NCBI GenBank assembly: GCA_903813345.2
Contig: CAIIXF020000001.1
Location: 22,568,001 to 22,632,000 of the forward strand
Length of the DNA: 64,000 nucleotides
DNA from: Owenia fusiformis
Lineage: Eukaryota
Reading direction: 5' to 3'
Shown: piece after piece, positions 20,310-64,000 of the stretch
Numbering within the stretch: the first letter of the stretch is position 1
How the letters are laid out: each line of letters begins with the position of its first letter
Position numbers and translations under genes: made by a program
The notes under the pieces: generated by a model
Told to the model about the DNA's origin: nothing
The model's database searches: none
The model's input: the letters and a program-made list of their open reading frames with translations, nothing else

Positions 20310-20480
20310 GTATTATTACCACCGTTCTCACCGTTAACGACCAGGACTGAAACAGCAAGAAAATCTTACGCATTGAACGATATCTAATTTCCCGGGGAAA
20401 ATTGCCGGTCCAGAATATATTCTAGACCGGTCCATATGGACCACCACTATGACGTCACACATTTCTCAGGTCGATATTGT

Positions 20481-20964: not shown

Positions 20965-22116
20965 GTAAAATAAACGCCTTCTAAACTAGCACTAAAACCC
21001 CTAGAACTGGCCCGGCAAGGTGGTAATAATTTGTATTAACTATTCAATCATAATTTCAATGCTGTGGAATTTGTCATCTAACTTCCCTTCCTACTATTTA
21101 GTACTATTATGGTTTGACTGGCTTGAACTTCATTCTATTATACTATCTCTGTCTTACTTCCATTACTCCCCCGATTGTTACTGTCAAGTCATCCTGGGAT
21201 GCTCTAATTACCTGAACATATTCTGCTTTCTATTTGAAGAATTTTTCGCTTGTTAAAGGCCATGTGTAAAATGCACTGGCTTATAATAGAAATAAAAGTA
21301 CATTTTGTAACCCTATACCATCACAATTGTATTTATAAATCTATAAAATCTAATATGCATAAAAATGAATGATTGAAATAGTCTAACCTGAGACGTATAA
21401 TAAATATATGTGTCTGGTCTAACTCACAAATTATGTGTATAATTTATATTGTTGTGTTTTTAATGATATAGATATAAAACTTTTGCAAATAAAATGATGG
21501 GAAATCAAATATTTGAGAATTAAGAAACCAACACATTTTTAGATAATTTTTATAGAATAATGCCTCAAACAATTTTTTCATGACATGACACCAAGCCCTC
21601 CTTTAAAGTATCATACTAGGGATGTTTTGGTATTGGATTCTAGTATTATATTTGGGACTTTTTTGTTTTTATATAAATCTTGTTTTCATATGAATAGTTT
21701 CCCTATTATTTGACTAAAATGATATACAGGATCAAAAGTGTTTGTGAAATGACTGTCAAAATTGATAGAATAATCTTGATTTTTCAGAAATAAATCAATT
21801 ATTTAATGGAGCAAACATCAGCTTTTTGTCAACTACAATTGAATTTTAAAATTTTGCCACAACAAACCAATTTTGTAATACTTTCATAAACATTATTTTC
21901 TTATACCCCACATACAAGTTCTAGTTTAGGGATTTAGAGAAACATAATTCTATCCCTCAAATGTTGGAATTATCAAAAGTAGGTCTGGGAGATTCGGTTA
22001 TTTTATTAGACTCCAGATGAAAATCTGGAGTCTATTGCTTTTGCCAGTTTTCTTTATTATTAGACTCCAGATGTCAATCTGGAGTCTATTGTTTTTGCCA
22101 GTATTCTTCTTATTAT

Positions 22117-23615
22117 TAGACTCTAGATGTCAATCTGGAGTCTATTGTTTTTGCCAGTATTCTTCTTCTTCTTCTTCTTCTTATTATTTTTCTTTAAGAG
22201 TTTTTTCAATAACTATAAGGTATCCAGTAAAGACCATTATACAGTTCATTTAGGTTCAGTATCTAGTTGGTGGGAAATTGGGTCAAATTTTTATCTAGGT
22301 CAAAGGTCAAGAACTAGGTCAAATCTTACATTTTCAGTCTTCTGTCTATTATCTTCGTCGTTATTTCTCGAAACGTCTTCTTCTTTTTTTCATCCTGTAG
22401 CTTACAAACAGCCCTTTCATAAGTGTGCCATCCGTTTTTTGATTACTCTTACCGATTTTGAAATATGGCGTCCGGAAAGTAGGTCACACCAAAACGTGCT
22501 CCAAATTCAATGTGTGAGTTATGAATTAGGAGTAGAATTTTGTCAGGAATCCGAATCTGCAAACCAAATTTCGATCAGATTTTTGGTTCGGAAGTTATGG
22601 CGTTTTAAAAGCTCAAAATTTGGTGCCCATGTTAAGTCAATGGGAAAAAAGATTTTTTTGAAGTGAAAAATTCGAAATATAGACTGAGTTCAGCTTAATT
22701 TAGTGAAAGCCTTCAAAAGAAGGGGACCTAAAAAGCCATCTAGCTTCAAAATTTGGACCCCAAAATGCCTAGGTCAAAATCTAGGTCAAATTCAGAGGTT
22801 TTCCTTATTTTTGCGATTCTGACACTACACTTCAATTATATTCTTCGAAATTGTATATACATGTAGCCAAGAGTGTGCTTATAGTGTTAGCCTTTTGCCG
22901 TCAGAAAGTATTTTGACCCACTTTTGAGATATGGTGTCCGAAAAGTAGGTCAAAATAAAAAATTCTCCAAATTAAACGTATGAGTTATGAATTAGGAGAA
23001 GAATTTTGTCGGGAATCCGAATCTGCAAACCAAATTTCGATCCGATTTCCGGTTCGGAAGTTATGGCGTGTCCAAAAAGTAGGTCAAAATAAAAAGTTTC
23101 CAAATTTAACGTATGAGTTATGAATTAGGGGTAGAATTTTGTCAGGAATCCGAATCTGCAAACCAAATTTCGATCTGACTTCCGGTTCGGAAATTATGGC
23201 GTTTTGAAATTTCGAGAAAAATCGATCTGATGATATCCTGATAGAAAGTCAAGAATAGCAAAGAAAATATTGAAAAATCCATCCTACCTTCCATCCATCA
23301 TTCCTACCCTATCTGATCCTATCCTATCCTTCCTATCTATCCTTCTTTCATATTTTTTACTTCCTATCCTCCATATCCTATCCTTTCTTCCTATTCTATC
23401 CTATCCTTCTTTTCTATTCTATCCTATCGTTCCTTCCTATTCTATCCTATTCTTCCTTCCTATTCAATCCGCCCATCAATCTTTTTCTGGATGACTCAGC
23501 TTATTTTGGATGACTCAGCTTATTCTGGATGACTCGGCTTATTCTGGATGACTGGGCTTAAAAAAGTCTAGATCTGGAGTCTGAAATTGAACTTCGTTCA
23601 ATTTCCTAAGTCTAG
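22117..23615 (+). mobile_element. Intact HINE-like copy
   Basis: Head at 22117 is contiguous with its body and ends at hairpin+CTAG (23615). Confidence 0.85.
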
Positions 23616-25052
23616 TTATTATTTTTCTTTAAGAGTTTTTTCAATAACTATAAGGTATCCAGTAAAGATCATAATACAGTATATTTAGGTTCAGTATCTA
23701 GTTGGTGGGAAATTGGGTCAAATTTTTATCTAGGTCAAAGGTCAAGAACTAGGTCAAATCCAGTACTTTGTCACTTTTTTCGATTTTCTCAGTCGTCCTT
23801 CAATATTTTCGATCCGGTTTTTTTTTTCATTGTGTTCCTCATAAAAAAGTAGTATGAAGAAACACGATTTAGATTTTTGATATCTCGAACCGATTTCGAG
23901 ATATCAGTGTCCGAAGACGAGGTCCAAAAAAAAATTCTCCGAATCAAATGTCCAGGATATTAGTCTTATAGGAAATTTTCTCAGGATTCCGAATCTGAAA
24001 ACCAAATTTGGATTGGACTTCCGGTTCAGAAGTTATGGCGTTTTGAAAGCTCAAAAATCGCTAAATTTGGTGCCCATGTTAAGTCAATGGGAAAAAATAT
24101 TTTTTTGAAGTGAAAAATACGAAATATAGACTGAGTTCAGCTTAATATAATGATAGCTTTTAAAAAAATGGGACCTCAAAAGCCATCTAGCTTCAAAATT
24201 TGGACCCCAAAATGCCTAGGTCAAAATCTAGGTCAAATTCAAGGTTTTTCCTTATTTTTGCGATTCTGACACTACAGATTAATTATATTCTTCGAAATTT
24301 TGTATACATGTAGACAAGAGTGTGCTAATAGTGTTAGCCTTTTGCCGTCAGGAAGTATTTTGCCCCACTTTTGAGATATGGTGTCCAAAAGTAGGTTAAA
24401 ATAAAAAATTCTCCAAATTTAACGTTTGAGTTATGAAGTAAGTATAGAATTTTCTCAGGAATCCGAATCTACAAACCAAATTTCGATCCGACTTCCGGTT
24501 CAGAAGTTATGGCGTGTCCGAAAAGTAGGTCAAAATAAAAATTTGCCAAATTTAACGTATGAGTTATGAATTAGGGGTAGAATTTTGTCAGGAATCCGAA
24601 TCTTTAAATCAAATTTCGATTTGACTCCTGGTTCGGAAGTTATGGCGTTTTGAAATTTCGGAAAATCGATCTGATGGTATCCTGATAGAAAGTCAAGAGT
24701 AGAGAACAAAATATTGAAAAATTCATCCATCCTTCCTATCTGATCTTACCCTATCCTATCCTATCCTTCCTATCTATCCTTCCTTCGTATCATTTCCTTC
24801 CTATCCTTCCTATCCTCTCCTATCATATCCTTTCTTCCTATTCTGTTCTATCCTATCCTTCTTTCTTATTCTATCCTATCGTTCCTTCCTATTCTATCCT
24901 ATCCTACCTTCCTATTTTATCCATCCATCTTTTTCTGGATGACTCAGCTTATTTTGGATGACTCGGCTTATTCTGGATGACTCGGCTAAAAAAAAGTCTA
25001 GATCTGGAGTCTGAAATTGAACTTCGTTCAATTTCCAAAGTCTAGTTATTAT

Positions 25053-25420
25053 TAGACTCCAGATGAAAATCTGGAGTCTATTGCTTTCGTCAGTTTTCTT
25101 TATTATTAGACTCCAGATGTCAATCTGGAGTCTATTGTTTTTGCCAGTATTCTTATTCTTCTTCTTATTCTTATTAGACTCCAGATGTCAATCTGGAGTC
25201 TATTGTTTTTGCCAGTATTCTTCTTATTATTAGACTCCAGATGTCAATCTGGAGTCTATTGTTTTTGCCAGTATTCTTCTTCTTCTTCTTCTTCTTCTTA
25301 TTAGACTCCAGATTTCATCTGGAGTCTATTGCTTTTGCCAGTTTTCTTATTATTAGACTCCAGATTGAAAATCTGGAGTCTATTGTTTTTGCCAGTATTC
25401 TTCTTCTTCTTCTTATTATT
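25053..25420 (+). repeat. Stack of six consecutive element 5' heads
   Basis: AGACTCCAGAT starts at 25054, 25108, 25176, 25232, 25303 and 25355, separated only by TTA/TTC microsatellite. Confidence 0.95.
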
Positions 25421-27168
25421 TTTCTTTAAGAGTTTTTTCAATAACTATAAGGTATCCAGTAAAGACCATTATACAGTTCATTTAGGTTCAGTATCTAGTT
25501 GGTGGGAAATTGGGTCAAATTTTTATCTAGGTCAAAGGTCAAGAACTAGGTCAAATCCAGTACTTTGTCACTTTTTTCGATTTTCTCGGTCGTCCTTCAA
25601 TATTTTTGATCCGGGTTTTTTTCATTGTGTTCCTCATAAAAAAGTAGAAAATCTAGGGTCGATTTAGTTTTTTAATATCTCAAACCAATTTCGAGATATC
25701 AGTGTCCGAAAACGAGGTCCAAAAAAAGTTCTCCGAATCCAATGTCCAGGATATCAGTCTTATAGGAGATTTTCTCAGGATTCCGAATCTGAAAACCAAA
25801 TTTCGATTTGACTTCCGGTTCAGAAGTTATGGCGTTTTGAAAATTCAAAAATCGCTAAATTTGGTACCCCATGTTAATTCAATGGGAAAAAATATTTTTT
25901 TGAAGTGTAAAATACGAGATACAGACTAAGCACAGCTAAACATAATGGAAGCCCATAAAAGAAAGGGACCTCAAAACCTTCTTTTCATAAAAATTTGGAC
26001 ACCAAAATGCCTAGGTCAAAATCTAGGTCAAATTCAAAGTTTTTCCTTATTTTTGCGATTCTGACACTACAGATTAATTATATTCTTCAAAATTTTGTAT
26101 ACATGTAGCCAAGAGTGTGCTAATAGTGTTAGCCTTTTGCCGTCAGAAAGTATTATGCCCCACTTTTGAGATATGGTGTCCGAAAAGTAGGTCAAAATAA
26201 AAAAATTCTCCAAATTTAACGTTTGAGTTATGAATTAAGTATAGAATTTTCTCAGAAATCCGAATCTGCAAATCAAAATTCGATCCGACTTCCTGTTCGG
26301 AAGTTATGACATTTTGAAAGCTCAAAAATCGCTAAATTTGGTGCCCCATGTTATGTCAATGGGAAAAAAGATTTTTTGAAGTGTAAAATTCGAGATATAG
26401 ACTAAGTACAGCTTAAAATAATGAAAGCCTATGAAAGAAAGGGACCTCGAAGGCTACCTAACTTCAAAATTTGGACACCAAAATCCCCAGGTCAAAATCT
26501 AGGTCAAATTCATAGTTTTTCCTTATTTTTGCGATTCTGACACTATGTTTAAATGATTTGCTTCAAAATTTTGTATACAGGTAGGAAAAAGTGTGCTAAT
26601 AGTGTTAGCCTTTTGCCGTCATAAAGTATTCCTACCCACTTTTGAGATATGGTGTCCGAAAAGTAGGTCAAAATAAAAAGTTCTCCAAATTTAGCATATG
26701 AGTTATGAATTAAGGGTAGAATTTTCTCAGGAATCCGAGTCTGCAAACCAAATTTCGATCCGACATCCGATTCGAAAGTTATGGCGTTTTGAAATTTCGA
26801 GAAAAATCGATCTGATGGTATCCTGATAGAAAGTCAAGAATAGAGAAGAAAATATTGAAAAATGCATCCATCCTTCCTTTGTGATCCTATCGTATCCTTC
26901 TTATCTACCTTTCCTTCATATCCCCTCCTTCCTATCCTTCCTATTCTATTCCTTCTTCATATTCTATTCTATCATTCTTTCCTATTCTATCCTATCGTTC
27001 CCTCCTATTCTAGCCTATCCTTCCTTCCTTTTTCATCCATCCATCCATCCATCTTTTTCTGGATGACTCAGCTTATTTTGGATGACTCGGCTTATTCTGG
27101 ATGACTCGGCCAAAAAAAGTCTAGATCTGGAGTCTGAAATTGAACTTTGTTCAATTTCCAAAGTCTAG
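25354..27168 (+). mobile_element. Intact HINE-like copy
   Basis: Head, body with ~476-bp internal repeats, CCTAT-rich block, and tail ending CTAG at 27168. Confidence 0.85.
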
Positions 27169-27175
27169 TTATTAT

Positions 27176-27222
27176 TAGACTCCAGATTGAAAATCTGGAG
27201 TCTATTGTTTTCGTCAGTTTTC

Positions 27223-27255
<33 letters not shown>

Positions 27256-28650
27256 CAGGCACGTTTTCTCAATAACCATAGGGTCTTCAGTAAAGTCAAT
27301 CGGTTGGTCAATTTAGGTTCAGAATCTAGTTCCTCGGAAATTGGGTCAAATTTTTATCTAGGTCAAAGGTCAAGAACTAGGTCAAATCCAGTACTTTGTC
27401 ACTTTTTTCGATTTTCTCGGTCGTCCTTCAATATTTTCGATCCGGGTTTTTTTCATTGTGTTCCTTATAAAAAAGTAGGAAACCTAGGGTCGATTTAGTT
27501 TTTTGATATCTCAAACCGATTTCGAGGTATCAGTGTCCGAAAACGAGGTCCAAAAAAAGTTCTCCGAATCAAATGTCCAGGATATCAATCTTATAGGAAA
27601 TTTTCCCAGGGTTCCGAATCAGAAAACGGAATTTCGATCCGACTACCGGTTCGGAAGTTATGGCGTTTTGAAAACTCAAAAATCGCTAAATTTGGTGCCC
27701 ATGTTAAGTCAATGGGAAAAAATATTTTTTTGAAGTGAAAAATACGGAATAAAGACTGAGTTCAGCTTCATATAATCAAAGCCTTTAAAAGAAGGGGACC
27801 TCAAAAGCCATCTAGCTTTAAAATTTGGACACCGAAATGCCTAGGTCAAAATCTAGGTCAAATTCATAGGTTTTCCTTATTTTTTCGATTCTGACACTAC
27901 ACTCTAATTATATTCTTCGAAATTGTGTATACATGTAGCCAAGAATATGCTTATAGTGTTAGCCTTTTGCCGCCAGAAAGTATTTTGACCCACTTTTGAG
28001 ATATGGTGTCCGAAAAGTAGGTCAAAATAAAAAGTTCTCCAAATTTAATATATGAGTTATGAATTAAGGGTACAATTCTGTCAGGAATCCGAATCTGCAA
28101 ACCAAATTTCGATCCGACTTCCGGTTCGGAAGTTATGGCGTGTCCGAAAAGTAGGTCAAAATAAAAAATCTCCAAATTTAACGTATGAGTTATGAATTAG
28201 GGGTAGAATTTTGTCAGGAATCCGAATCTTTCAATCGAATTTCGATCCGACTTCCGGTTCGGAAGTTATGGTGTTTTGAAATTTCGGAAAATCGATCTGA
28301 TGGTATCCTGATAGAAAGTCAAGAGTAGAGAAGAATATGTTGAAAAATTCATCCATCCTTCCTATCTGATCTTATCCTATCCTTCCTTTCTATCATTTCT
28401 TCGTATCTTTTCCTTCCTATCCTTCTTATCCTATCCTTTCTTCCTATTCTATTCTATCCTATCCTTCTTTCTTATTCTATCCTATCGTTCTTTCCTATTC
28501 TATCCTATCCTACCTTCCTATTTTATTTATCCATCTCTTTCTAGATGACTCAGCTTATTCTGGATGACTCGGCTTATTCTGGATGACTCGGCTAAAAAAA
28601 GTCTAGATCTGGAGTCTGAAATTGAACTTCGTTCAATTTCCAAAATCTAG
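27176..28650 (+). mobile_element. Intact HINE-like copy (TTTTCGTCAG head subfamily)
   Basis: Head at 27177; tail CTAG at 28650. Confidence 0.85.
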
Positions 28651-31600
28651 TTATTATTATTATTATTATTTTTCTTTCTTTGCCAGTTTTCTCAGCTACT
28701 AGAAGGACTTACTAAAATCTGCTAACATAATCAGCTGGGTAATGAGACCTAGTTTCTGGGAAATTAGGTCAAATGTTTATCTAGGTCAAAGGTCAAGAAC
28801 TAGGTCAAATCGTGTGTTTTCACTATTTTACAAGTTTTCTCAGTCGTCCTTCGGTATTTTGGCTCCGGGTTTTTTTCATCATGTTCCTTAGAAAAAAAGC
28901 TAATTCCGTAAGGCAAATCGTTTTTTGATTACTCCTACCGATTTTGAGATATGGCGTCCGAAAAGTAGGTCAGAACATAAAAAGTTCTCCAAAGTCAACG
29001 TGTGAGTTATCAAATAAGTGTAGAATTATCTCAGGAATCCGAATCTGCAAACAAAAATCTGATCCGACATCCGGTTCGGAAGTTATAGCCTTTTGAAATC
29101 TCAAAAATCGCTAAATTTGGTGCCTATGTTAAGTCAATGGGAAAAAAGACTTTTTCGAAGTGTAAAATACAAGATGTAGACTGAGTACAGCTTAACATAA
29201 TGAATGCTTATAAAACAAGGGGACCTCAAAAGCTACATAGCTTCAAAATTTGGACACCAAAATGCCTAGGTCAAAATCTAGGTCAAATTCATAGTTTTTC
29301 CTTATTTTTGCGATTCTGGCACTACACTTTTAGGATTTGCTTCAAAATTTTGTATACAGGTAGCAAAGAGTGTGCTAATAGTGTTAGCCTTTTGCCGTCA
29401 AAAAGTATTTTGACCCACTTTTGAGATATGGTGTCCGTAAAGTAGGTCAAAATAAAAATTTCTCATAATTTAACTTATGAGTTATGAATTAAGGGTAGAA
29501 TTTTCTCAGGAATCCGAATCTGCAAACCAAATTTCAATCCGACTTTTCGTTGGGAAGTTATGGCGTTTTGAAAGCTCAAAAATCGCTAATTTTGGTGCCC
29601 CATGTTATGTCAATGAGAAAAAAGATTTTTTTGAAGTGTAAAATACCAGATAAAGACTGAGTACAGCTTAAGATTCTGAAAGTCTATAAAAGAAGGGGAC
29701 CTCGAAGGCTATCTAGCTTTAAAATTTGGACACCAAAATCCCTAGGTCAAAATCTAGGTCAAATACATAGTTTTTCCTTATTTTTGCGATTCTGGCACTA
29801 CACCTTTAGGATTTGCTTCAAAATTTTGTATACAGGTAGCAAAGAGTGGGCTTATAGTGTTAGCCTTTTGCCGTCAGAGAGTATTTTGACCCACTTTTGA
29901 GATATGGTGTCCGAAAAGTAGGTCAAAATAAAAGTTCTCCGAATTTAGCATATGAGTTATGAAATAAGGATAGAATTTTCTGAGGAATCTGAATCTGCAA
30001 ACCAAATTTCGATCCGACTTTCTGTTTGAAAGTTATAGCGTTTTGAAAGCTCAAAAATTGCTAAATTTGGTGCCCCATGTTATGTCAATAGGGAAAAAGA
30101 TTTTTTTGAAGTCTAAAAGACCAAATATAGACTGAGTACAGCTTAACATTCTGAAAGCCTTTAAAAGAAGGGGACTTCGAAGGCTATCTAGCTTTAAAAT
30201 TTGGACACCAAAATGCCAAGGTCAAAATCTAGGGCAAATTCATAATTTTCCTTATTTTTGCGATTCTGACATTACACTTTAATGATTTGCTTCGAAATTT
30301 TGTATACAGGTAGCAAAGAGTGTGCTTATAGTGATAGCCTTTTGCCGTCAGAAAGTATTTTGACCCACTTTTGAGATATGGTGTCCAAAAAGTAGGTCAA
30401 AATAAAAAAATCTCCAAATTTAATGTATGAGTTATGAATTAAGGGTAGAATTTTCTCAGGAGTCCGAATCTTTAAACCAAAATACAATCTAACTTCTGGT
30501 TAGATAGTTATAGCGGTTTGAAGTCTCGAAAAGTCGATATGATGATATCCCCATGTTAAGCCAATGGAGTCGAAGATAAAAAATGGAGAGTTGTCTAAAT
30601 GTCTAAATTCTAGCTGACTCGATCAGCTTATTCTGGATGACTCAGCTTACAAGTATTCTGGATGACTCAGCTTAAAAAAAGAATTAAATCTGGAGTCTTA
30701 AATTGAACTTGTTCAATTTACATGTCTAGTTATTATTTTTCTTTAAGAGTTTTTTCAATAACTATAAGGTATCCAGTAAAGACCATTATACAGTTCATTT
30801 AGGTTCAGTATCTAGTTGGTGGGAAATTGGGTCAAATTTTTATCTAGGTCAAAGGTCAAGAACTAGGTCAAATCCAGTACTTTGTCACTTTTTTCGATTT
30901 TCTCGGTCGTCCTTCAATATTTTTGATCCGGGTTTTTTTCATTGTGTTCCTCATAAAAAAGTAGAAAATCTAGCGTCGATTTAGTTTTTTGGTATCTCAA
31001 ACCAATTTCGAGATATCAGTGTCCGAAAACGAGGTCCAAAAAAAAATTCTCCGAATCCAATGTCCAGGATATCAGTATTATAGGAGATTTTCTCAGGATT
31101 CCGAATCTGAAAACCAAATTTCGATCTGACTTCCGGTTCAGAAGTTATGGCGTTTTGAAAATTCAAAAATCGCTAAATTTGGTACCCCATGTTAATTCAA
31201 TGGGAAAAAATATTTTTTTGAAGTGTAAAATACGAGATACAGACTAAGTACAGCTTAAAATAATGAAAGTCTATGAAAGAAGGGAACCTCGAAGGCTTCC
31301 TTATTTCAAAATTTGGACACCAAAATGCCTAGGTCAAAAATTGGTCAAATTCATAGTTTATCCTTATTTTTGCGATTCTGACACTACACTTTAATTATAT
31401 TCCTCGAAATTGTGTATACATGTAGCCAAGAGTGTGCTAATAGCGTTAGCCTTTTGCCGTCAGGAAGTATTTTGACCCACTTTTGAGATACGGTGTCCGA
31501 AAAATAGGTCAAAAAAAAAGTTCTCCAAATTTAACGTTTGAGTTATGAATTAAGAATAGAATTTTCTCAGAAATCCGAATCTGCCAACCAAATTTTGATA

Positions 31601-32255
31601 CGACTTCTGGTTCAGAAGTTATGGCGTGTCCGAAAAGTAGGTCAAAATAAAAATTCGCCAAATTTAATGTATGAGTTATGAATTAGAGGTAGAATTTTGT
31701 CAGGAATCCGAATCTGCAAATCAAATTTCGATTCGACTTCCGGTTCGGAAGTTATGGCGTTTTGAAATTTCAAGAAAAATCGATCTGATGGTATCCTGAT
31801 AGAAAGTCAAGAGTAGAGAAGAAAATATTGAAAAATGCATCCATCCTTCCTTTCTGATCCTATCCTATCCTTCCTATTTACCCTTGCTTCGTATCCTCTC
31901 CTTCCTATCCTTCCTATTCTATCCCTTCTTCCTATTCTATTCTATCCTTCTTTCCTATTCTATCCTATCGTTCCTTCCTATTCTATCCTATCCTTCCTTC
32001 CTTTTTCATCCATCCATCTTTTGCTGGATGACTTAGCTTATTTTGGATGACTTGGCTTATTCTGGATGACTCGGCTAAAAAAAGTCTAGATCTGGAGTCT
32101 GAAATTGAACTCGTTCAATTTCCAAAATCTAGTTATTAGACTCCAGATGTCAATCTGGAGTCTATTGTTTTTGCCAGTATTCTTCTTCTTCTTCTTCTTC
32201 TTATTAGACTCCAGATTGAAAATCTGGAGTCTATTGCTTTTGCCAGTTTTCTTAT

Positions 32256-33575
32256 TAGACTCCAGATTGAAAATCTGGAGTCTATTGTTTTTGCCAGTAT
32301 TCTTCTTATTATTCTTCTTTATTATTCTTTAGACGTTTTTTCTATAACTATAAGGTATCCAGTAAAGACCATTATACAGTTCATTTAGGTTGAGAATCTA
32401 GTTGGTGGGAAATTGGGTCAATTTTTTATCTAGGTCAAAGGTCAAGAACTAGGTCAAATCTTACATTTTCAACCTTCTGTCTATTATCTTCGTCGTTATT
32501 TATCGAAACGTCTTCCTATTTTTTTCATTATGTAGCTTAGAAACAGCCCTTTCACTAGTGTGCCATCAGATTTTTGATTACTGTTACTGATTTTGAGATA
32601 TGGCGTCCGGAAAGTAGGTCAGAACAAAAAGTTCTCCAAATTCAACATGTGAGTTATGAAATAAGTGTAGAATGATCTCAGGAATCCAAATCTGCAAATC
32701 AAATTTGGATCAGACTTCCGGTTCGGAAGTTATGGCGTTTTGAAAGCTCAAAAATCGCTAAATTTGGTGCCCATGTTAAGTCAATAGGAAAAAATGTTTT
32801 TTTTGAAGTGAAAAATACGAAATAAAGACTGAGTTCAGCTAAATATAATGAAAGCTTTTAAAAGAATGGGACCTCAAAAGCCATCTAGCTTCAAAATTTG
32901 GACACCAAAATGCCTAGGTCAAAATCTAGGTCAAATTCAAAGTTTTTCCTTAGTTTTGCGATTCTGACACTACACTTTAATTATATTCTTCGAAATTGTG
33001 TATACATGTAGCCAAGAGTGTGCTTATAGTGTTAGCCTTTTGCCGTCAGAGAGTATTTTGACCCACTTTTGAGATATGGTGTCCGAAAAGTAGGTGAAAA
33101 TAAAAAGTTCTCCAAATTTAACATATGAGTTATGAATTAAGGGTAGAATTTCCTCAGGATTCCGAGTCTGCAAATCAAATTTCGATCCAACTTCCGGTTT
33201 GAAAGTTATGGTGTTTTGAAATTTCGAGAAAAATCGATCTGATGGTATCCTGATAGAAAGTCAAGAGTAGAGAAGAAAATATTGGAAAATGCATCCATCC
33301 TTCTTTTGTGATCCTATCATATCCTTCCTATCTACCTTTTTGTATCCTCTCCTTCCTATTCTATCCCTTCTTCCTATTCTATTCTATCCTTCTTTCCTAT
33401 TCTATCCTATCGTTCCTTCCTATTCTAGCCTATCCTTCCTTCCTTTTTCATCCATCCATCTTTTTCTGGATGACTCAGCTTATTTTGGATGACTCGTCTT
33501 ATTCTGGATGACTCGGCTAAAAAAAAGTCTAGATCTGGAGTCTGAAATTGAACTTGTTCAATTTCCAAAGTCTAG
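32256..33575 (+). mobile_element. Intact HINE-like copy
   Basis: Innermost of three heads (32138, 32206, 32257); tail CTAG at 33575. Confidence 0.85.
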
Positions 33576-43559: not shown

Positions 43560-43569
43560 TTATTATTAT

Positions 43570-53700: not shown

Positions 53701-54789
53701 GCCGTATATCTAGACGACACCTGGTATACACGATGTATACGTATCTCTGCGAACAACAGACATTTGAAAGAAAATAGGCCCGGACGATGACTAGAGCATT
53801 TCAAAAACAACGTTTCCCTTCGTCCAACTAACGATTGCGGAATGTAGAACGATACGTACGCTGCTCGAATCTACGTCGAAAGCCCTATATGGACGTCTGG
53901 AAGGCCTGTTTTTTGAAGGACTATTTTTTGACCTCGACGGATCCGCGAAGCACGAGCCAGGCATTCTCCCCAACTACCTCCCTAGATTCCCCGACCTTTA
54001 ATCGACCATTATAGGCCCTCAGAGCGTCCGTAGAGCCATTTCCCTCTATACGCGTATGGGCAAATCCTATTATGATTTTTGCTTTCGTATGTGCAAAAAG
54101 CAAAAATCCTCCTCACACACGTTCTCACCAACGAGAGATATTTGGACAAATCTACTCATACACGTTGTTAGGGGGCTAGGCGTAGTTGCTCGGAAATTAG
54201 GTCAAATCCTTATCTGGGTCAAAGGTCGAAATCTAGGTCGAAATCTGCATTTCCGCTATTTTGGCCTCTCGAGCCTCCTTAAGAAGTCAGAATCGGAGGA
54301 AAACTAGCTGGTCGGAAAGACAGTTTTCCGAGCATTAAAAAAACAGTGAACCAAATTTCAATCCGACCATTAGTTATCGAGATATACGCGTTTGAAGTTC
54401 GCGTACGGGCCACCGTTGCCGTATATCTAGACGACACCTGGTATACACGATGTATACGTATCTCTGCGAACAACAGACATTTGAAAGAAAATAGGCCCGG
54501 ACGATGACTAGAGCATTTCAAAAACAACGTTTCCCTTCGTCCAACTAACGATTGCGGAATGTAGAACGATACGTACGCTGCTCGAATCTACGTCGAAAGC
54601 CCTATATGGACGTCTGGAAGGCCTGTTTTTTGAAGGACTATTTTTTGACCTCGACGGATCCGCGAAGCACGAGCCAGGCATTCTCCCCAACTACCTCCCT
54701 AGATTCCCCGACCTTTAATCGACCATTATAGGCCCTCAGAGCGTCCGTAGAGCCATTTCCCTCTATACGCGTATGGGCAAATCCTATTA
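44752..54789 (+). repeat. Head-to-tail tandem array, 717-bp unit x exactly 14
   Basis: The unit runs TGATTTTTGCTTTCG...GGGCAAATCCTATTA, and 14 x 717 = 10038 bp. The ORF track repeats identically every 717 bp, and I saw no differences between copies by eye. Confidence 0.97.
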
Positions 54790-54908
54790 TTAGACTCCAG
54801 ATTGAAAATCTGGAGTCTATTGTTTTTGCCTGTTTTCTTTATTATTATTATTATTATTAGACTCCAGATGAAAATCTGGAGTCTATTGCTTTTGCCAGTT
54901 TTCTTTAT

Positions 54909-56385
54909 TAGACTCCAGATTGAAAATCTGGAGTCTATTGTTTTTGCCAGTATTCTTCTTCTTATTATTATTATTATTATTATTTTTCTTTAAGAGTTTT
55001 TTCAATAACTATAAGGTATCCAGTAAAGACCATTATACAGTTCATTTAGGTTCAGTATCTAGTTGGTGGGAAATTGGGTCAAATTTTTATCTAGGTCAAA
55101 GGTCAAGAATTAGGTCAAATCCAGTACTTTGTCACTTTTTTCGATTTTCTCGGTCGTCCTTCAATATTTTTGATCCGGTTTTTTTCATTGTGTTCCTCAT
55201 AAAAAAGTAGGAAATCTAGGGTCGATTTAGTTTTTTGATATCTCAAACCGATTTTGAGATATGGCGTCCAGAAAGTAGGTCACACCAAAAAGTGCTCCAA
55301 ATTCAATGTATGAGTTATGAATTAGGGGTAGAATTTTGTCAGGAATCGGAATCTACAAACCAAAGTTCGATCCGACTTCTGGTTCGGAAGTTATGGCGTT
55401 TTGAAAACTCAAAAATCGCTAAATTTTGTGCCCATGTTAAGTCAATGGGAAAAAGATATTTTTTGAAGTGAAAAATACGAAATATAGACTGAGTTCAGCT
55501 TAATTTAATGAAAGCCTTCAAAAGAAGGGGACCTCAAAAGCCATCTAGCTTCAGAATTTGGACACCAAAATTCCTAGGTCAAAATCTAGGTCAAATTCAA
55601 AGTTTTTTCTTATTTTTGCGATTCTGACACTACACTTTAATTATATTCTTCGAAATTGTGTATACACGTAGTCAAGAGTGTGCTAATAACGTTAGCCTTT
55701 TGCCGTCATAAAGAATTTTGACCCACTTTTGAGATATGTTGTCCGAAAAGTAGGTCAAAATAAAAAGTTCTCCAAATTTAACGTTTGAGTTATGAATTAA
55801 GAATAGAATTTTCTCAGAAATCCGAATCTGCAAACCAAATTTCGATCCGACTTCCGGTTCCGAAGTTATGGCGTGTCCAAAAAGTAGGTCAAAATAAAAA
55901 TTCGCCAAATTTAATGTATGAGTTATGAATTAGGGGTAGAATTTTGTCAGGAATCCGAATCTTTAAATCAAATTTCGATCCGACTTCCGGTTCGGAAGTT
56001 ATGGCGTTTTGAAATTTCGGAAAATCGATCTGATGGTATCCTGATAGAAAGTCAAGAGTAGAGAAGAAAATATTGAAAAATTCATCCATCCTTCATATCT
56101 GATCCTATCATATCCTATCCTTCCTTCGTATCCTTTCCTTCCTATCCTTTCTATCCTCTCCTATCATATCCTTTCTTCCTATTTTGTTCTATCCTATCCT
56201 TCTTTCTTATTCTATCCTATCGTTCCTTCCCATTCTATCCTATCCTACCTTCCTGTTTTATCCATCCATCTTATTCTGGATGACTCAGCTTATTCTGGAT
56301 GACTCGGCTTATTTTAGATGACTGGGCTTAAAAAAGTCTGGATCTGGAGTCTGAAATTGAACTTCGTTCAATTTCCCAAGTCTAG
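54909..56385 (+). mobile_element. Intact HINE-like copy
   Basis: Innermost of three heads (54792, 54859, 54910); tail CTAG at 56385. Confidence 0.85.
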
Positions 56386-59300
56386 TTATTATTCTTTCAG
56401 AATCTTCCTCCTTCCCAGATTTCTCACCAACTAGAAGAGCTTACTTTAAGCTGCTTACATGATTAACTAGGGAATGTATCTGGGATGATGGGAAATTAGG
56501 TCAAATTTTTATCTAGGTCAAAGGTCAAGAACTAGGTCAAATCCAGTACTTTGTCACTTTTTCCCATTATCTCGGTCGTCCTTCAATATTTTTGATCTTG
56601 GTTTTTTTCATTGTGTTCCTCATAAAAAAGTAGAAAACCTAGGGTCGATTTAGTTTTTTGGTATCTCAAACCGATTTCGAGATATCAGTGTCCGAAAACG
56701 AGGTTCAAAAAAAATTTCACCGAATCCAATGTCCGGGATATCAGTCTTATAGGAAATCTTCTCAGGATTCCGAATCTGAAAACCAAATTTCGATCTGACT
56801 TCCGGTTGAGAAGTTATGGCGTTTTGAAAATTCAAAATCGCTAAATTTGGTGCCCCATGTTAATTCAATGGGAAAAAATATTTTTTTGAAGTGTAAAATA
56901 CGAGATATAGACTAAGCACAGCTAAACATAATGGAAGCCCATAAAAGAAAGGGACCATAAGACCTTCTTTTCATAAAAATTTGGACACCAAAATGCCTAG
57001 TTCAAAATCTAGGTCAAATTCAAAGTTTTTCCTTATTTTTGCGATTTTGACACTACAGATTAATTATATTCTTCGAAAATTTGTATACATGTAGCCAAGA
57101 GTGTGCTAATAGTGTTAGCCTTTTGCCGTCAGAAAGTATTTTGACCCACTTTTGAGATATGGTGTCCGAAAAGTAGGTCAAACTAAAAAATTCTCCAAAT
57201 TTAACGTATGAGTTATGAATTAGGGGTAGAATTTTATCAGGAATCTGAATCTGCAAACCAAATTTTGATTCGAACTCCTGTTCGGAAGTTATGGCGTTTT
57301 GAAAGCTCAAAAATCGCTAAATTTGCTGCCCCATGTTATGTCAATGGGAAAAAAGATTTTTTTGAAGTGTAAAATACGAGATATAAACTGAGTACAGCTT
57401 AATATAATGAAAGCCTATGAAAGAAGGGGACCTCGAAGGCTACTTAGCTTCAAAATTTGGACACCAAAATCCCTAGGTTAAAATCTAGGTCAAATTCATA
57501 GTTTTTCCTTATTTTTGCGATTCTGACACTATATTCAAATGATTTGCTTTAAAATTTTGTATACAGGTAGCAAAGAGTATGCTCATAGTGTTAGCCTTTT
57601 GCCGTCAGAAAGTATTTTGACCCACTTTTGAGATATGGTGTCCGAAAAGTAGGTCAAAATAAAAACTATCCAAATTTAATGTGTGAGTTATGAATTAAAG
57701 GTAAAACTTTCTCAGGAATCCAAATCTGCAAACCAAATTTCGATCCGACTTCTTGTTCTGAAGTTATGGCGTTTTGAAATCTCAAAAATCGCTAAATTTG
57801 GTGCCCCATGTTAAATCAATGGGACCGAATAATTTTTTGAAGTGTAAAAATACGAGATATAGAATGAGTACAGCTAAACATAATGAAAGCCCATAAAAGA
57901 AGGGGACCTCAAAAGCTACTTTCCTTCAAAATTTGGACACCAAAATACCTAGTTCAAAATCTAGGTCAAATTCTTAGTTTTTTCTTATTGTTGCAATTCG
58001 GACACTACACTTCAATGATATTCTTCGAAATTTTGTATACATGTAGCAAAGAGTGTGCTCATAATGTTAACTTGTTGCCGTCAAGAAGTGTTTTGACCCA
58101 CTTTTGAGATATGGTGATCGAAATGTATGTCAAAATAAAAAGTTCTCCAAATTTAACGTATGAGTTATGAATTAGGGGTAGAATTTCCTAAGGAATCCGG
58201 ATCTGAAATTAAAATTGCGATCCGACCCCCGGTTAAGATTCTAAGCCATTTTGAAGTTTGAAATTCGCACTTGCCAGTATTCACGATGCAGATAGATCAA
58301 ATATACTTTCAAAAATTCCTACATACCCTACTTTACCTCCCTACCTACTCAGCTACTTATTTGACTACTTACTCAATTGCTTAATTAGTTATTACTTACT
58401 TAGCTACTTACTCAGCTACTAACTCAGGTACTTACTCAGCTACTTACTCAGCTACCTACTCAGCTTTTTACCCAGTTACTTACTCAGCTACTTACTCAAC
58501 TACTACTAAGGTACTTACTCAGCTAATTACTCAGTTAATTACTCAGCTCTTTACTGATCTATCTAGGTAAAATAAATCTGGAGTCTTAAATTGAACTTGT
58601 TCAATTTCACAAATCTAGTTATTCTTATTTTTCTTTTTGAGTTTTCTCAATAACTATAAGGTATCCAGTAAAGACCATAATACAGTTTGTTTAGGTTCAG
58701 TCTCTAGTTGGTGGGAAATTGGGTCAAATTTTTATCTAGGTCAAAGGTCAAGAACTAGGTCAAATCCAGTACTTTGTCACTTTTTTTGATTTTCTCGGTC
58801 GTTCTTCAATATTTTCGATCCGTTTTTTTTTCATTGTGTTCCTTATAAAAAAGTAGGAAACCTAGGATCGATTTAGTTTTTTGATATCTCAAACCGATTT
58901 CGAGATATCAGTGTCCGAAAACGAGGTCCAAAAAAAAGTTCTCCGAATCAAATGTCCAGGATATTGGTCTTATAGGAAATTTTCTCAGGATTCCGAATCT
59001 GAAAACGAAATTTGGATCGGACTTCCGGTTCTGAAGTTATGGCGTTTTGAAAGCTCAAAAATCGCTAAATTTGGAGCCCATGTTAAGTCAATGGGAAAAA
59101 AGATTTTATTGAAGTGAAAAATACGAAATATAGACTGAGTTCAGCTAAATATAATGAAAGCCTTTAAAAGAATGGGACCTCAAAAGCCATCTAGCTTTAA
59201 AATTTGGACACCAAAATGCCTAGGTCAAAATCTAGGTCAAATTCAAAGTTTTTCCTTATTTTTGCGATTCTGACACTACAGATTGATTATATTCTTCAAA

Positions 59301-61387
59301 ATTTTGTATACATGTAGCCAAGAGTGTGCTTATAGTGTTAGCATTTTGCCGTCAGAAAGTATTTTGCCCCACTTTTGAGATATGGTGTCCGAAAAGTAGG
59401 TCAAAATAAAAAGTTCTCCAAATTTGACGTTTGAGTTATGAATTAAGAATAGAATTTTCTCAGAAATCCGAATCTGCAAACCAAATTTCGATCCGACTTC
59501 CGGTTCCGAAGTAATGGTGTGTCCAAAAAGTAGGTCAAAATAAAAATTCGCCAAATTTAATGTATGAGTTATGAATTAGGGGTAGAATTTTGTCAGGAAT
59601 CCGAATCTTTAAATCAAATTTATATCCGACTTCCGGTTCGGAAGTTATGGCGTTTTGAAGTTTCGGAAAATCGATCTGATGGTATCCTGATAGAAAGTCA
59701 AGAGTAGAGAAGAAAATATTGAAAAATTCATCCATCCGTCCAATCTGATCCTATCCTATCCTTCCTATCTATCCTTCATTCATATCCTTTCCTTCCTATC
59801 CTTCCTATCCTCTCCTACCATATCCTTTCTTCCTATTCTGTCCTATCCTATCCTTCTTTCTTATTCTATCCTATCGATCCTTCCCATTCTATTCTATCCT
59901 ACCTTCCTATGTTATCCATCCATCTTATTCTGGATGACTCGGCTTATTTAAGATGACTGGGCTTAAAAAAGTCTAGATCTGGAGTCTGAAATTGAACTTC
60001 GTTCAATTTCCAAAGTCTAGTTATTTTTCTTTAAGAGTTTTTTCAATAACTATAAGGTATCCAGTAAAGACCATTATACAGTTCATTTAGGTTCAGTATC
60101 TAGTTGGTGGGAAATTGGGTCAAATTTTTATCTAGGTCAAAGGTCAAGAACTAGGTCAAATCTTACATTTTCAGTCTTCTGTCTATTATCTTTGTCGTTA
60201 TTTCTCGAAACGTCTTCTTCTTTTTTCCATCCTGTAGCTTACAAACAGCCCTTTCATAAGTGTGCCATCCGTTTTTTGATTACTCTTACTGATTTTGAAA
60301 TATGGCGTCCGGAAAGTAGGTCACACCAAAACTTGCTCCAAATTCAATGTATGAGTTATGAATTAGGAGTACAATTTTGTCAGGAATCCGAATCTGCAAA
60401 CCAAATTTCAATCAGATTTCCGGTTCGGAAGTTAAGGCGTTTTAAAAGCTCAAAATTTGGTGCCCATGTTAAGTCAATGCGAAAAAAGATTTTTTTGAAG
60501 TGAAAAATTCTAAATATAGACTGAGTTCAGCTTAATTTAATGAAAGCTTTCAAAAGAAGGGGACCTCAAAAGCCATCTAGCTTCAAAATTTGGACACCAA
60601 AATGCCTAGGTCAAAATCTAGGTCAAATTCAAAGGTTTTCCTTATTTTTGCGATTCTGACACTACACTTCAATTATATTCTTCGAAATTGTGTATACATG
60701 TAGCCAAGAGTCTGCTAATAGTGTTAGCCTTTTGCCGTCAGAAAGTATTTTGACCCACTTTTGAGATATGGTGTCCGAAAAGTAGGTCAAAATAAAAAGT
60801 TCTCCAAATTTAAGGTTTGAGTTATGAATTAGGGGTAGAATTTTGTCAGGAATCCGAATCTGCAAACCAAATTTCGATCCGACTTACAGTTCCGAAGTTA
60901 TGGCGTGTCCAAAAAGTAGGTCAAAATAAAAATTCGCCAAATTTAACGTATGAGTTATGAATTAGGGGTAGAATTTTGTCAGGAATCCGAATCTTTAAAT
61001 CAAATTTAGATCCGACTTCCGGTTCGGAAGTTATGGCGATTTGAAATTTCGGAAAATCGATCTGATGGTATCCTGATAGAAAGTCAAGAGTAGAGAAGAA
61101 AATATTGAAAAATTCATCCATCCTTCCTATCTGATCCTATCCTATCCTTCCTATCTATCCTTCCTTCGTATCCTTTCCTTCCTATCCTTCCTATCCTCTC
61201 CTATCATATCCTTCTTCCTATTCTGTTCTATCCTATCCTTCTTTCTTTTTCTATCCTATCGTTCCTTCCCATTCTATCCTATCCTACCTTCCTATTTAAA
61301 CCATCCATCTTATTCTGGATGACTCAGCTTATTCTGGATGACTCGGCTTATTTTAGATGACTGGGCTTAAAAAAGTCTAGTTATTAT

Positions 61388-63709
61388 TAGACTCCAGATT
61401 TCATCTGGAGTCTATTGCTTTTGCCAGTTTTCTTATTATTATTCTTTCTTTCTTTCTTTCTGAACACTTTTTCTCAGCAACTAGAAGGACTTACTTAAAT
61501 CTGCTAACATAGTCAACTAGGTAATGAAACCTAGTTTCTGGGAAATTAGGTCAAATGTTTATCTAGGTCAAAGGTCAAGAACTAGGTCAAATCGTTGGTT
61601 TTCACTATTTTACAAGTTTTCTCAGTCGTCCTTTGGTATTTTTGCTCCGGGTTTTTTTCATCATGTTCCTTAGAAAAAAAGCTAATTCCGAAAGGCAAAT
61701 CGTTTTTTGATTACTCTTACAGATTTTGAGAAATGACGTCCGAAAAGTAGGTCAGAACATAAAAAGTTCTCCAAATTCAACGTGCAAATTATAAAATAAG
61801 TGTAGAATTATCTCAGGAATCCGAATCTGCAAACAAAATTTCGATCCGACTTCCGGTTAGGAAGTTATAGCATTTTGAAATCTCAAAATCGCTAAATTTG
61901 GTGCCCCATGTTAAGTCAATGGGGAAAAAGACTTCTTCGAAGTGTAAAATGCGAGATATAGACTGAGTACAGCTTAACATAATGAAAGCCTATAAAAGAA
62001 GGGGACCTCTAAGGCTATCTAGCTTTAAAATTTGGACAGCAAAATGCCTAGGTCAAAATCTAGGTCAAATTTATAGTTTTTTCTTATTTTTGCGATTCTG
62101 ACACTACACTTTAATAATTTGCTTCAGAATTTTGTATACAGGTAGCCAAGAGTGTGCTAATAGTGTTAGCCTTTTGCCGTCAGAAAGTATTTCTACCCAC
62201 TTTTGAGATATGGTGTCCGAAAAGTAGGTCAAAATGAAAAATTCTCCAAATTTAACATATGAGCTATGGAATAAGGGTAGAATTTCCTCAGGAATCCGAA
62301 TCTGCAAACCATATTTCGATCCGACTTCCCGTTTGAAAGTTATGGCGTTTTGAAATTTCGAGAAAAATCAATCTGATGTTATCCTGATAGAAAGTCAAGG
62401 AAAAAAGATTTTTTTGAAGTGTAAAATACGAGATATAGATTGAGTACAGCTTAAGATAATGAATTCCTATAAAAGAAGGGGACCTCAAAAGCTACCTAGT
62501 TTCAATATTTGGACACCAAAATGCCTAGGTCAAAATCTAGGTCAAATTCATAGTTTTTCCTTATTTTTGCGATTCTGACACTACACTTTTAGGATTTGCT
62601 TCAAAATTTTGTATACAGGTAGCAAAGAGTGTGTTTATAGTGTTAGCCTTTTGCCGTCAGAGAGTATTTTGACCCACTTTTGAGATATGGTGTCCGAAAA
62701 GTAGGTCAAAATAAAAAATTCTCGAAATTTAACATATGAGTTATGAATTAAGAGTAGAATTTTCTCAGGAATCCGAATCTGCAAACCAAATTTCGATCCG
62801 ACTTCCGGTTCTAAAGTTATGGCGTGTCCGAAAAGTAGGTCAAAATAACAATTCGCCAAATTTAACGTATGAGTTATGAATTAGGGGTAAAATTTTGTCA
62901 GGAATCCGAATCTTTAAATCAAATTTCGATCTGACTTCCGGTTTGGAAGTTATGGCGTTTTGAAATTTCGGAAAATCGATCTGATGGTATCCTGATAGAA
63001 AGTCAAGGAAAAAAGATTTTTTTGAAGTGTAAAATACGAGATATAGATTGAGTACAGCTTAAGATAATGAATTCCTATAAAAGATGGGGACCTCAAAAGC
63101 TACCTAGTTTCAATATTTGGACACCAAAATGCCTAGGTCAAAATCTAGGTCAAATTCATAGTTTTTCCTTATTTTTGCGATTCTTGCACTACACTTTTAG
63201 GATTTGCTTCAACATTTTGTATACAGGTAGCAAAGAGTGTGCTAATAGTGAGAGCCTTTTGCCGTCAGAAAGTATTTTGACCCACTTTTGAGATTTGGTG
63301 TCCGTAAAGTAGGTCAAAATAAAAAGTTCTCATAATTTAACTTATGAGTTATGAATTAAGGGTAGAATTTTCTCAGGAATCCAAATCTGCAAACCAAATT
63401 TCAATCCGACTTCCGGTCAAAAATTCCTACTTACCTACCTACTTACCTACTCGGCTACCTACTTAGCTACCTACTCAGCTACCTACTCAGCTACTTACTC
63501 AGCTACCTACTCAGCTACTTACTCAGCTACCTACTCAGCTACTTACTCAGCTACCTACTCAGCTGCTTACTCAGCTACCTACTCAGCTACTTACTCAATT
63601 ACTTAATCATCTACTTACACAGCTTCCTACTCAGTTACTTACTCAGCTCTTTACTCAAGTAAATCAATCTGGAGTCTTAAATTGAACTTTGTTCAATTTA
63701 CCAATCTAG
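61388..63709 (+). mobile_element. Intact HINE-like copy (GATTTCATC head subfamily)
   Basis: Head at 61389; 12-bp CTACTCAG repeats at ~63430-63655; tail CTAG at 63709. Confidence 0.85.
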
Positions 63710-64000
63710 TTATTATTCATTCTTTCTTTCTTTCTTTCTTTCTTTCCGAACACTTTTTCTCAGCAACTAGAAGAACTTACTTTAACCTACTTACATGGCT
63801 AACATAGCCCATCAACCTAGTTTCTGGGAAATTAGGTCAAATTTTTATCTAGGTCAAAGGTCAAGAACTAGGTCAAATTTAGGTCAATCAACATTCTGTC
63901 AATTATCTTCGTTGTTACTTGTGGTAACTCCTTCATCTTTTTTTCAACATGTAGCTTAGAAAAAAACAAATCGAGAATGTGCCATCCGTTTTTTGATTAC

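Follow-up and report, generated by a model that had tools for sequence, protein, structure and literature searches.

A nest of HINE/DINE-1-like elements in the genome of Owenia fusiformis

Heads, tails and anatomy of the element family

The window analysed here is a stretch of 64,000 nucleotides from Owenia fusiformis (assembly GCA_903813345.2, contig CAIIXF020000001.1, positions 22,568,001 to 22,632,000, forward strand), and all positions below are counted from its first letter. From 22003 to its end lies a dense array of left ends (heads) and right ends (tails) of a repeated element resembling the HINE/DINE-1 type of rolling-circle transposon. An earlier note on this DNA had described the region as a nest of more than 42 kb formed by one self-targeting Helentron-like family. 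The nest is confirmed as real; however, the part at 44752-54786 is not family sequence, being an array of 14 tandem units of 717 bp that the note had overlooked (the S array). GC content is about 35% from 22003 to the window end, except for this 10-kb block of 46% GC, and no family sequence was found in window positions 1-22002.

Heads were sought by a regex scan of both strands of the whole window, the pattern being AGACTCCAGAT, a loop of 4-6 nt and ATCTGGAGTCTATTG. The result showed exactly 24 heads, all on the + strand, at the coordinates that the earlier note had given: 22008, 22062 and 22118; 25054, 25108, 25176, 25232, 25303 and 25355; 27177; 32138, 32206 and 32257; 38911, 38960, 39013 and 39063; 41731 and 41799; 43571; 54792, 54859 and 54910; and 61389. 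Seeming minus-strand heads were palindromic reads of the same 24 + strand sites. A complete tail consists of GTCTAG, ATCTGGAGTCT, a palindrome with a 10-bp stem and about 10 nt ending in CTAG. Nineteen tails were found, all on the + strand, and the regex scan of the window found none on the minus strand. Eighteen are complete and end at 23615, 25045, 27168, 28650, 30729, 32132, 33575, 35608, 37160, 38905, 40425, 41725, 43559, 44751, 56385, 58618, 60020 and 63709. All 19 ends claimed earlier are thus in place, but the tail at 61380 is truncated: AAAAAAGTCTAG joins TTATTATT and the next head directly, and the 43 nt between two GTCTAG repeats are gone.

The elements are numbered E1 to E24 in the order of their heads, and E9 serves as the reference for their anatomy. 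It comprises TTATT (25350-25354), a 5' subterminal inverted repeat (subTIR; 25355-25365), an inverted repeat (IR; 25371-25381), a microsatellite (25398-25418), a conserved core (about 25496-25557), central 476-bp repeats (25769-26794), a 3' subTIR (27125-27135), a palindrome (27136-27158) and the terminal CAAAGTCTAG (27159-27168); its 3' subTIR starts 44 nt from the end and its 10-bp-stem palindrome ends 10 nt from the end. The 11-nt 5' subTIR, AGACTCCAGAT, is present in 24/24 heads with at most one mismatch; taking TATT or TTATT as the beginning of the element places it 4-5 nt from the terminus. Its reverse complement, ATCTGGAGTCT, forms the IR after the 4-6 nt loop in every head and recurs in 18 of the 19 tails. 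Folded as DNA, the head hairpin has a 13-bp stem (-12 kcal/mol, z = -6.4). The microsatellite, (TTA/TTC)n or (TTA)n(CTTT)n, begins 41-47 nt downstream of where the head starts, a core of 65-80 nt is common to all subfamilies and to the S unit, and the central repeats (133 bp and about 476 bp) vary in copy number between elements. All 19 tails end in CTAG, and the hairpin ends 10 nt before it in the 18 complete ones.

This anatomy matches the DINE-1/HINE plan (PMC4067079, PMC2374699, PMC7492417). In that plan a 5' subTIR of about 11-15 nt lies 2-4 nt from the 5' terminus, the IR 1-22 nt further downstream, the 3' subTIR about 38-60 nt from the 3' end and a palindrome 8-35 nt from it. The architecture assigned by the earlier note therefore holds for the subTIR, IR, microsatellite, central repeats, 3' subTIR and stem-loop, but the 3' CTAG with its hairpin is Helitron-like, canonical Helitrons ending in CTRR about 11 nt after a hairpin, and the family is better described as HINE-like with mixed features. 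Other canonical Helitron traits are absent: the 5' end reads (T)TATTAGACTCC and not TC, and the base before TTATT is A in only 11 of the 24 cases (C in 8, G in 3, T in 2), unlike an A-T insertion. Mixed elements have precedents in oyster 'intermediate' elements that combine Helitron and Helentron features (PMC7992393) and in a proto-Helentron with 5'-TT/3'-CTAG ends (PMC4067079).

No open reading frame (ORF) of at least 150 aa was found in 44700-54850, and the only ORF of at least 90 aa listed as reaching the array, a frame of 101 aa at 21948-22253, runs from stop to stop across the first stack of heads and shows no coding sign. No Rfam family matched anywhere in the window, the head and core patterns had no match in viral_contigs, and a literature search for the subTIR motif returned only unrelated primer matches.

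Heads were classified by the 14 nt after ...GGAGTCTATTG, giving the classes hA (TTTTTGCCAGTATT), hC (CTTTTGCCAGTTTT) and hB (TTTTCGTCAGT(T/A)TT). Body subtypes differ in the approximately 95 nt between microsatellite and core, and the copies fall into several subfamilies, labelled A, B/F and C/D/E. D/E-type elements carry a 12-bp minisatellite, (TACTTACTCAGC)n, just before the tail (58341-58555, 63444-63648 and about 44600-44700), whereas in A-type elements this position is taken by a (CCTAT)-like tract rich in pyrimidines, together with a sequence of about 19 nt (GGATGACTCRGCTTATTCT) in three copies, so that the 3' internal repeats also distinguish the subfamilies.

Stack order, excision and head-body pairing

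Heads were treated as opening brackets and tails as closing brackets, and each tail was paired with the last head still open. Depth ranged from a minimum of 1 to a peak of 9 (at 54910) and was 5 at the window end, reproducing all three values of the earlier note. Nineteen elements are closed, nine of them uninterrupted (E3, E9, E10, E13, E17, E19, E20, E23 and E24) and ten split by inner elements (E2, E6, E7, E8, E11, E12, E16, E18, E21 and E22), and five are open at the window end (E1, E4, E5, E14 and E15); in all, 14 of the 24 are interrupted by another family member. Boundaries and partners derived from the parse and from excision are as follows.

22003-64000, + strand: E1, outermost; head 22003-22056, class hC (CTTTTGCCAGTTTT); open; left flank non-family, ending ...CGGTTATTT
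22057-25045, + strand: E2, split, A-type; head 22057-22112, body and tail 23616-25045; hosts E3
22113-23615, + strand: E3, uninterrupted, A-type, 1503 bp
25049-25102, + strand: E4, head only, CTTTCGTCAGTTTT (CGTCAG head); open
25103-25170, + strand: E5, head only, hA; open
25171-38905, + strand: E6, split, A-type; head 25171-25226, body and tail 37161-38905; hosts E7 and E11
25227-32132, + strand: E7, split, A-type; head 25227-25297, body and tail 30730-32132; hosts E8
25298-30729, + strand: E8, split; hC head 25298-25349, TTA 27169-27171, C/E-type body and tail 28651-30729; E9 and E10 inside it side by side
25350-27168, + strand: E9, uninterrupted, A-type, 1819 bp; reference anatomy
27172-28650, + strand: E10, uninterrupted, B-type; head TTTTCGTCAGTTTT
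32133-37160, + strand: E11, split, A-type; head 32133-32200, body and tail 35609-37160; hosts E12
32201-35608, + strand: E12, split; hC head 32201-32251, C/E-type body and tail 33576-35608; hosts E13
32252-33575, + strand: E13, uninterrupted, A'-type
38906-38954, + strand: E14, head only, TTTTCGTCAGTTTT; open
38955-39007, + strand: E15, head only, hA; open; the parse assigns it the mismatching E-type body at 63710-64000
39008-41725, + strand: E16, split; CGTCAG head 39008-39057, body and tail 40426-41725; in a 300-nt core window closest to B-type E10 (89%)
39058-40425, + strand: E17, uninterrupted, A-type
41726-61380, + strand: E18, split, A-type; head 41726-41793, TTATTA 43560-43565, body 60021-61380, truncated tail; hosts E19, E20, the S array and E21
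41794-43559, + strand: E19, uninterrupted, A''-type
43566-44751, + strand: E20, uninterrupted, D-type; (TACTTACTCAGC)n tract and variant tail
44752-54786, + strand: S array, 14 tandem 717-bp units; boundaries ambiguous by 1-3 nt
54787-60020, + strand: E21, split; unique head GCCTGTTTT 54787-54853, A-like body and tail 58619-60020; hosts E22
54854-58618, + strand: E22, split; hC head 54854-54904, D-type body and tail 56386-58618 (96% to E20 upstream of the core); hosts E23
54905-56385, + strand: E23, uninterrupted, A-type; at the maximum depth of 9
61384-63709, + strand: E24, uninterrupted, E-type, 2326 bp
63710-64000, + strand: microsatellite remainder followed by the beginning of an E-type body to which the head atop the stack does not correspond; possibly from an element 'X' whose head would have been lost in a deletion at 61380

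The iterative excision proposed in the earlier note was carried out in silico. When inner elements were removed, the ten split elements regained the microsatellite-body join exactly as it stands in the nine uninterrupted ones; rejoined E2, for example, reads ...GCCAGTATTCTTCTTA|TTATTATTTTTCTTTAAGAG..., matching E3, E9 and E17. All 19 reconstituted elements were intact and collinear, measured 1186-2326 nt and were covered end to end by matches to family members, with no unmatched segment of at least 40 nt that would indicate foreign sequence. Length differences between elements track the copy number of the 133-bp and approximately 476-bp central repeats. Overall identity between elements is 76-96%, adjacent copies are not more alike, and the three head classes are mixed within stacks, indicating that the elements are not copies of their neighbours.

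The junctions are uniform. TTATT stands directly before all 24 heads, and the base before TATT is T in every case; T follows 19/19 tails and TTATT follows 18/19, the exception being the tail of E20, which runs into the S array. All 23 nested insertions lie at T^TATT in the (TTA/TTC)n tract of a host, 49-74 nt from the start of the host TTATT. Counted from the host AGACTCC the interruptions lie at 44-69 nt, which bears out the earlier statement that every junction falls in this tract about 45 bp inside an element. At the sibling junctions 32132, 38905 and 41725, zero host bases stand between the end of one element and the start of the next, and some host-insert positions recur: E1|E2 and E4|E5 both follow CAGTTTTCTTTA, and E14|E15 and E16|E17 both follow CAGT(T/A)TTC.

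Runs of (TT[AC]) with at least four repeats number 24 in the window, each of them on the + strand and within the microsatellite of an element or what remains of one; the whole-window scan found none in the 22-kb flank or in element bodies. Bare TTATT occurs at 77 sites inside microsatellite zones and at 81 outside them, and none of the outside sites carries an insertion. If bare TTATT were the only target, the chance of all 23 insertions falling in microsatellite zones would be about (77/158)^23, or about 7e-8. The insertion sites may be explained equally by a preference for the tract or by nearness to the resident 5' hairpin. Only two terminus phases fit the junction with the S array, TTATT-AGACTCC...CTAG and TATT-AGACTCC...CTAGT, and the latter amounts to insertion between T and T without duplication. 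T-T insertion without a target-site duplication (TSD) is the mode described for Helentrons and HINEs (PMC4067079, PMC7492417). For the window, however, the 'no TSD' of the earlier note is one of two readings that suit the data, the other being a duplication of TTATT.

In the nine uninterrupted elements, head class and body type go together: hA with an A body in 6/6, hC with a D/E body in 2/2 and hB with a B body in 1/1. For the ten split elements, the 14-nt signature of the head assigned by the stack was compared with the head of the best-matching uninterrupted body, and the fit was assessed by permutation. With the 95-nt pre-core segment as the body, eight of the ten were exact, while E16 and E21, whose head variants occur nowhere else, were each off by 2; with a 300-nt segment seven were exact, E16 was off by 1, and E21 and E22 were off by 2. 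Total head mismatches were 4 (95-nt) or 5 (300-nt), whereas permutation gave about 12-13 on average; P was 0.0086 with either segment. Concordant partners lie up to 18 kb apart, as in E18, whose head at 41726 and body at 60021 are separated by the 10-kb S array. First-in-first-out pairing fails by inspection, the hC head of E1 and the CGTCAG head of E4 both receiving A bodies. This concordance is the strongest test of the nesting.

In the S array a unit of exactly 717 bp is repeated 14 times with 0 differences from copy to copy; its GC content is 0.46, compared with about 0.35 around it. Each unit opens with a hairpin of 12-bp stem (GATTTTTGCTTT...AAAGCAAAAATC) and carries the family core (65-80 nt) at an offset matching the HINE-like bodies, where its identity with every element is 82-87%; a T-rich microsatellite and a 3' copy of the subTIR are both absent from it. 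Bordered immediately by the E20 tail on the left and by the TTATT of E21 on the right, the array occupies the same kind of site as the family insertions, inside the E18 microsatellite. Tandem arrays of rolling-circle elements have been ascribed to terminator bypass or to amplification from a circular template (PMC4067079, PMC12628747). The zero divergence of the units fits one recent amplification event, and the array may be a single rolling-circle concatemer; alternatively, its copy number may stem from assembly or from the polishing of a collapsed repeat.

A metagenome contig of 1463 nt (L001) begins with a tail end and TTATT. Four heads then follow in a stack, a TTATT in front of each, and behind them come a single body that includes the core, a (GATT)n tract and a degenerate tail. 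Compared with window elements, the heads show 82-93% identity and the initial 240 nt or so of the body 76-81%, which marks L001 as a diverged relative. Because it carries a four-head stack, stacking is a property of the lineage and not of this assembly. At 1020-1400 of L001, long (GATT)n/(GTCT)n microsatellites replace the 3'-half repeats of the window family, and its tail has no recognisable 3' subTIR.

Window positions 19501-39500 were also compared with one raw-read run, from another sample, and with three runs of Logan contigs. The family is high-copy: word depth in its contigs ranges from the hundreds into the thousands, whereas contigs from those parts of the flank that are repeated least (19501-20186 and 21364-21815) have about 30-75. 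In 161 raw reads an E1-type head continues into an uninterrupted microsatellite with no second head, and 96% of matching raw reads run into unlike sequence and hence come from other copies. Logan contigs and reads include tail-to-head joints absent from the window. One marine plankton metagenome contained 0.21 of the words, which suggests no more than a probably marine habitat. Left of the nest, 20168-21501 has a summed contig word depth of about 80,000-235,000, against about 20,000 in the preceding bin; as it does not resemble the HINE-like family, it probably represents a different family of repeats. Farther upstream, 2065-5871 on the + strand is a stop-free frame of 1269 aa with many TPR_10/TPR_12 repeats (an NPHP3-like TPR domain), its N-terminal 600 aa or so having no strong Pfam match; the frame probably represents a gene that lacks introns, and it lies 16 kb upstream of the nest.

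Origin of the nest and alternative explanations

We consider that at least 24 copies of one non-autonomous HINE/DINE-1-like rolling-circle family accumulated here by sequential self-targeted insertion, with a probability of roughly 0.8. The idea of the earlier note that the element carries its own landing pad, so that same-orientation insertions nest, is supported by the excision, the head-body match, the T^TATT junctions and the stack in L001. Each copy carries a T-rich (TTA/TTC)n tract some 45 nt inside its 5' end, immediately behind the subTIR/IR hairpin, and insertion would occur in one orientation at T^TATT, of which the microsatellite offers many sites. A new copy landing in the microsatellite of a resident would leave a head of about 50-70 nt and a headless body with its tail. 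If the phase is TATT-AGACTCC...CTAGT, the insertion would restore T^TATT on either side of itself while importing a fresh microsatellite, and landing sites would multiply with each insertion, giving abutting siblings and nests up to nine deep. We infer that each insertion was a transposition of its own, driven in trans by a Helentron-type Rep/helicase, and that the target was chosen by sequence.

A bolder extension is doubtful. It joins autocatalytic homing, in which the transposase is possibly held by the resident 5' hairpin, integration takes place at T^TATT and a founder grows into an orientation-locked 'safe-haven' sink that spares genes, with an origin of the S units as one rolling-circle concatemer in a single event. 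If it were true, multimeric products of the rolling-circle process would have left a natural trace, the S array, in the genome of an animal.

Several observations weigh against sequential nesting. When 24 heads and 19 tails are ordered at random, a depth of at least 1 throughout has a probability of 0.116, and the depth criterion alone is therefore weak evidence. TTATT on both flanks fits a 5-bp TSD equally well, which would be unlike a Helentron. The open element E15, with an hA head, receives the E-type body at 63710-64000 that follows E24, the one anomaly of the parse. The mismatch sits at the truncated tail, and both could be explained by a single deletion: we infer that one event of about 100 nt at 61380 removed the tail hairpin of E18 together with a 25th head, that of the E-type host 'X', in which case the actual depth at the window end would be 6. 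The explanation nevertheless requires an extra assumed deletion. In addition, Tandem Repeats Finder (TRF) detects at 38906-39112 a repeat with a period of 103 bp and 98% matches, formed by the head pairs [E14 E15][E16 E17], which could be a mobilised composite or a local duplication of two heads. The claim that nesting records insertion order holds for parent before child alone, provided that composites were never mobilised, and the expected greater age of outer elements did not show: among private substitutions in 12 A-type copies over 486 aligned columns, five pairs followed the outer-older order and six were reversed, a count confounded by subfamily differences and dominated by the divergent E13 and E19. 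Finally, Logan contigs are only about 75-250 nt, too short to check the long-range order of the assembly.

The recurrent junction positions and the 103-bp repeat bear on two other accounts. Ready-made composites, that is, hosts mobilised as one unit with their inner elements, would reduce the local events to fewer than 24 and make the order not strictly local. Split elements do keep intact outer ends, E1|E2 recurs as E4|E5 and E14|E15 as E16|E17, and tail-to-head joints foreign to the window occur in Logan contigs and reads, as does a stack in L001. Recurrent positions are also expected, however, if the first T^TATT after a head is preferred; the recurrent pairs differ in microsatellite length, the visible host bodies belong to different subfamilies (E12 and E22), and no two window composites were shown to be mutual copies, so we hold this account to be unlikely. 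Unequal crossing-over or replication slippage between the microsatellites of tandem elements would dispense with nested transposition altogether. It would suit the similar (TTA/TTC)n/TTATT boundaries of all units and the 98% matches of the [E14 E15][E16 E17] repeat, and the truncated tail at 61380 demonstrates that small losses between short repeats have happened at this locus. Such exchange gives a legal parenthesis order no reason to persist, however, and leaves unexplained the stack-paired match of head and body subtypes over 1.5-18 kb (P about 0.009). It is also at odds with the failure of first-in-first-out pairing, by which E1 and E4 would receive A bodies, and with elements that differ by 4-24%, adjacent ones being no closer; we regard it as very unlikely.

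The head stacks themselves recall the model of Xiong, Dooner and Du (2016), in which a circular template loses its 3' terminator through recombination between internal repeats and yields many 5' ends and one 3' end (PMC12628747, PMC8268682); stacks would then be amplified 5' ends integrated as a block. Such multi-5'-end, single-3'-end arrays are known for Helitrons (PMC12628747, PMC8268682), each stack here precedes one full body and tail, and the S array shows tandem amplification of a related unit at the locus. Amplification of one truncated template nevertheless has little to recommend it, as the stacked units mix three head classes and loop variants and range over 49-71 nt, and as it predicts neither the ten units made of microsatellite remainder, headless body and tail, nor the near balance of 19 tails to 24 heads, nor the last-in-first-out match of head and body types. 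There is likewise only a slight chance that mis-assembly distorted the unit order and the 14-copy S array. The family is high-copy, the 14 zero-difference units may be a polishing product of a collapsed repeat, and in the raw reads (from another sample, with multi-mapping reads skipped) some locus-specific bins fall below flank depth; but a random mis-join would destroy the bracket order, the continuity of the microsatellites and the head-body concordance, and a related stack stands in an independent metagenome assembly (L001). One further candidate, a circular intermediate recombining into the microsatellite as suggested for SaTar elements (PMC5907723), was rejected because it predicts the order head1-body2-tail2-head2-body1-tail1 with swapped partners, not stacks of heads.

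Comparison with known systems

Under sequential nesting, the locus is a clean natural record of Helentron-type target choice, with 23 nested insertions of the family and one of a related unit, all in one orientation, in one pentanucleotide context and within the microsatellite of the element itself. It yields falsifiable predictions for the right flank beyond the window and is suited to studying relative insertion order, the regeneration of targets and the birth of satellite-like arrays from rolling-circle elements. It also carries a warning for annotation, since runs of heads of about 50 nt and headless bodies may be split hosts and not fragments. Much of what is seen here was already known: the architecture, the preference for T-rich targets, adjacent Helitrons, arrays with multiple 5' ends and the building of arrays by microsatellite targeting. 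Helitron-like elements disrupting (GAAA)n microsatellites are reportedly the title subject of a 2010 study by Coates and colleagues. Deep, orientation-locked self-nesting of a HINE-type family in its own internal microsatellite was not found described in the main-text passages of the literature searched.

The window family shares with HINE/DINE-1 elements (Thomas et al. 2014, PMC4067079; Yang and Barbash 2008, PMC2374699; oyster Cg_HINE, PMC7492417) an 11-nt 5' subTIR, an IR, a microsatellite, a core, central tandem repeats of variable number (here 133 and 476 bp), a 3' subTIR with stem-loop, a non-coding body and a T-rich/TT context. It differs in its 3' end, where CTAG is combined with a hairpin that stops 10 nt short of the terminus, a trait of canonical Helitrons, and in its microsatellite, which is T-rich (TTA/TTC)n here and of the GTCY type in DINE-1 and several Cg_HINEs; because its microsatellite is itself T-rich, the family carries its own target. 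Helitron arrays (PMC12628747, PMC8268682, PMC4067079) likewise include stacks of 5' ends before a single body, tandem units comparable to the S array, and adjacent Helitrons. In contrast to these multi-5'-end arrays, the stacks of the window mix subtypes and are balanced by headless bodies in last-in-first-out order, and only the S array fits amplification.

Dimers of transposable elements (TEs) formed through insertion-site preference (McGurk and Barbash, cited in PMC12628747) resemble the nest in self-insertion and in giving multi-copy structures of one family; they are mostly dimers, of other TE classes and in Drosophila, whereas at least 24 copies stand here, up to nine deep and all in one orientation. 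The SaTar Mutator-like elements (MULEs) of guayule and rice (PMC5907723) are also non-autonomous and microsatellite-associated, insert into microsatellites and build multimeric arrays. They are cut-and-paste elements with terminal microsatellites and arrays described explicitly as non-nested, whereas the window family is of the rolling-circle type, has its microsatellite internally, about 45 nt in, and is nested. Its ends are a subTIR with a hairpin and not MULE terminal inverted repeats with 8-11 bp TSDs, and 14/24 of its elements are interrupted. The placement of the microsatellite would thus decide the shape of the array, an internal one leading to nesting, as here, and a terminal one, as in SaTar MULEs, to end-to-end arrays.

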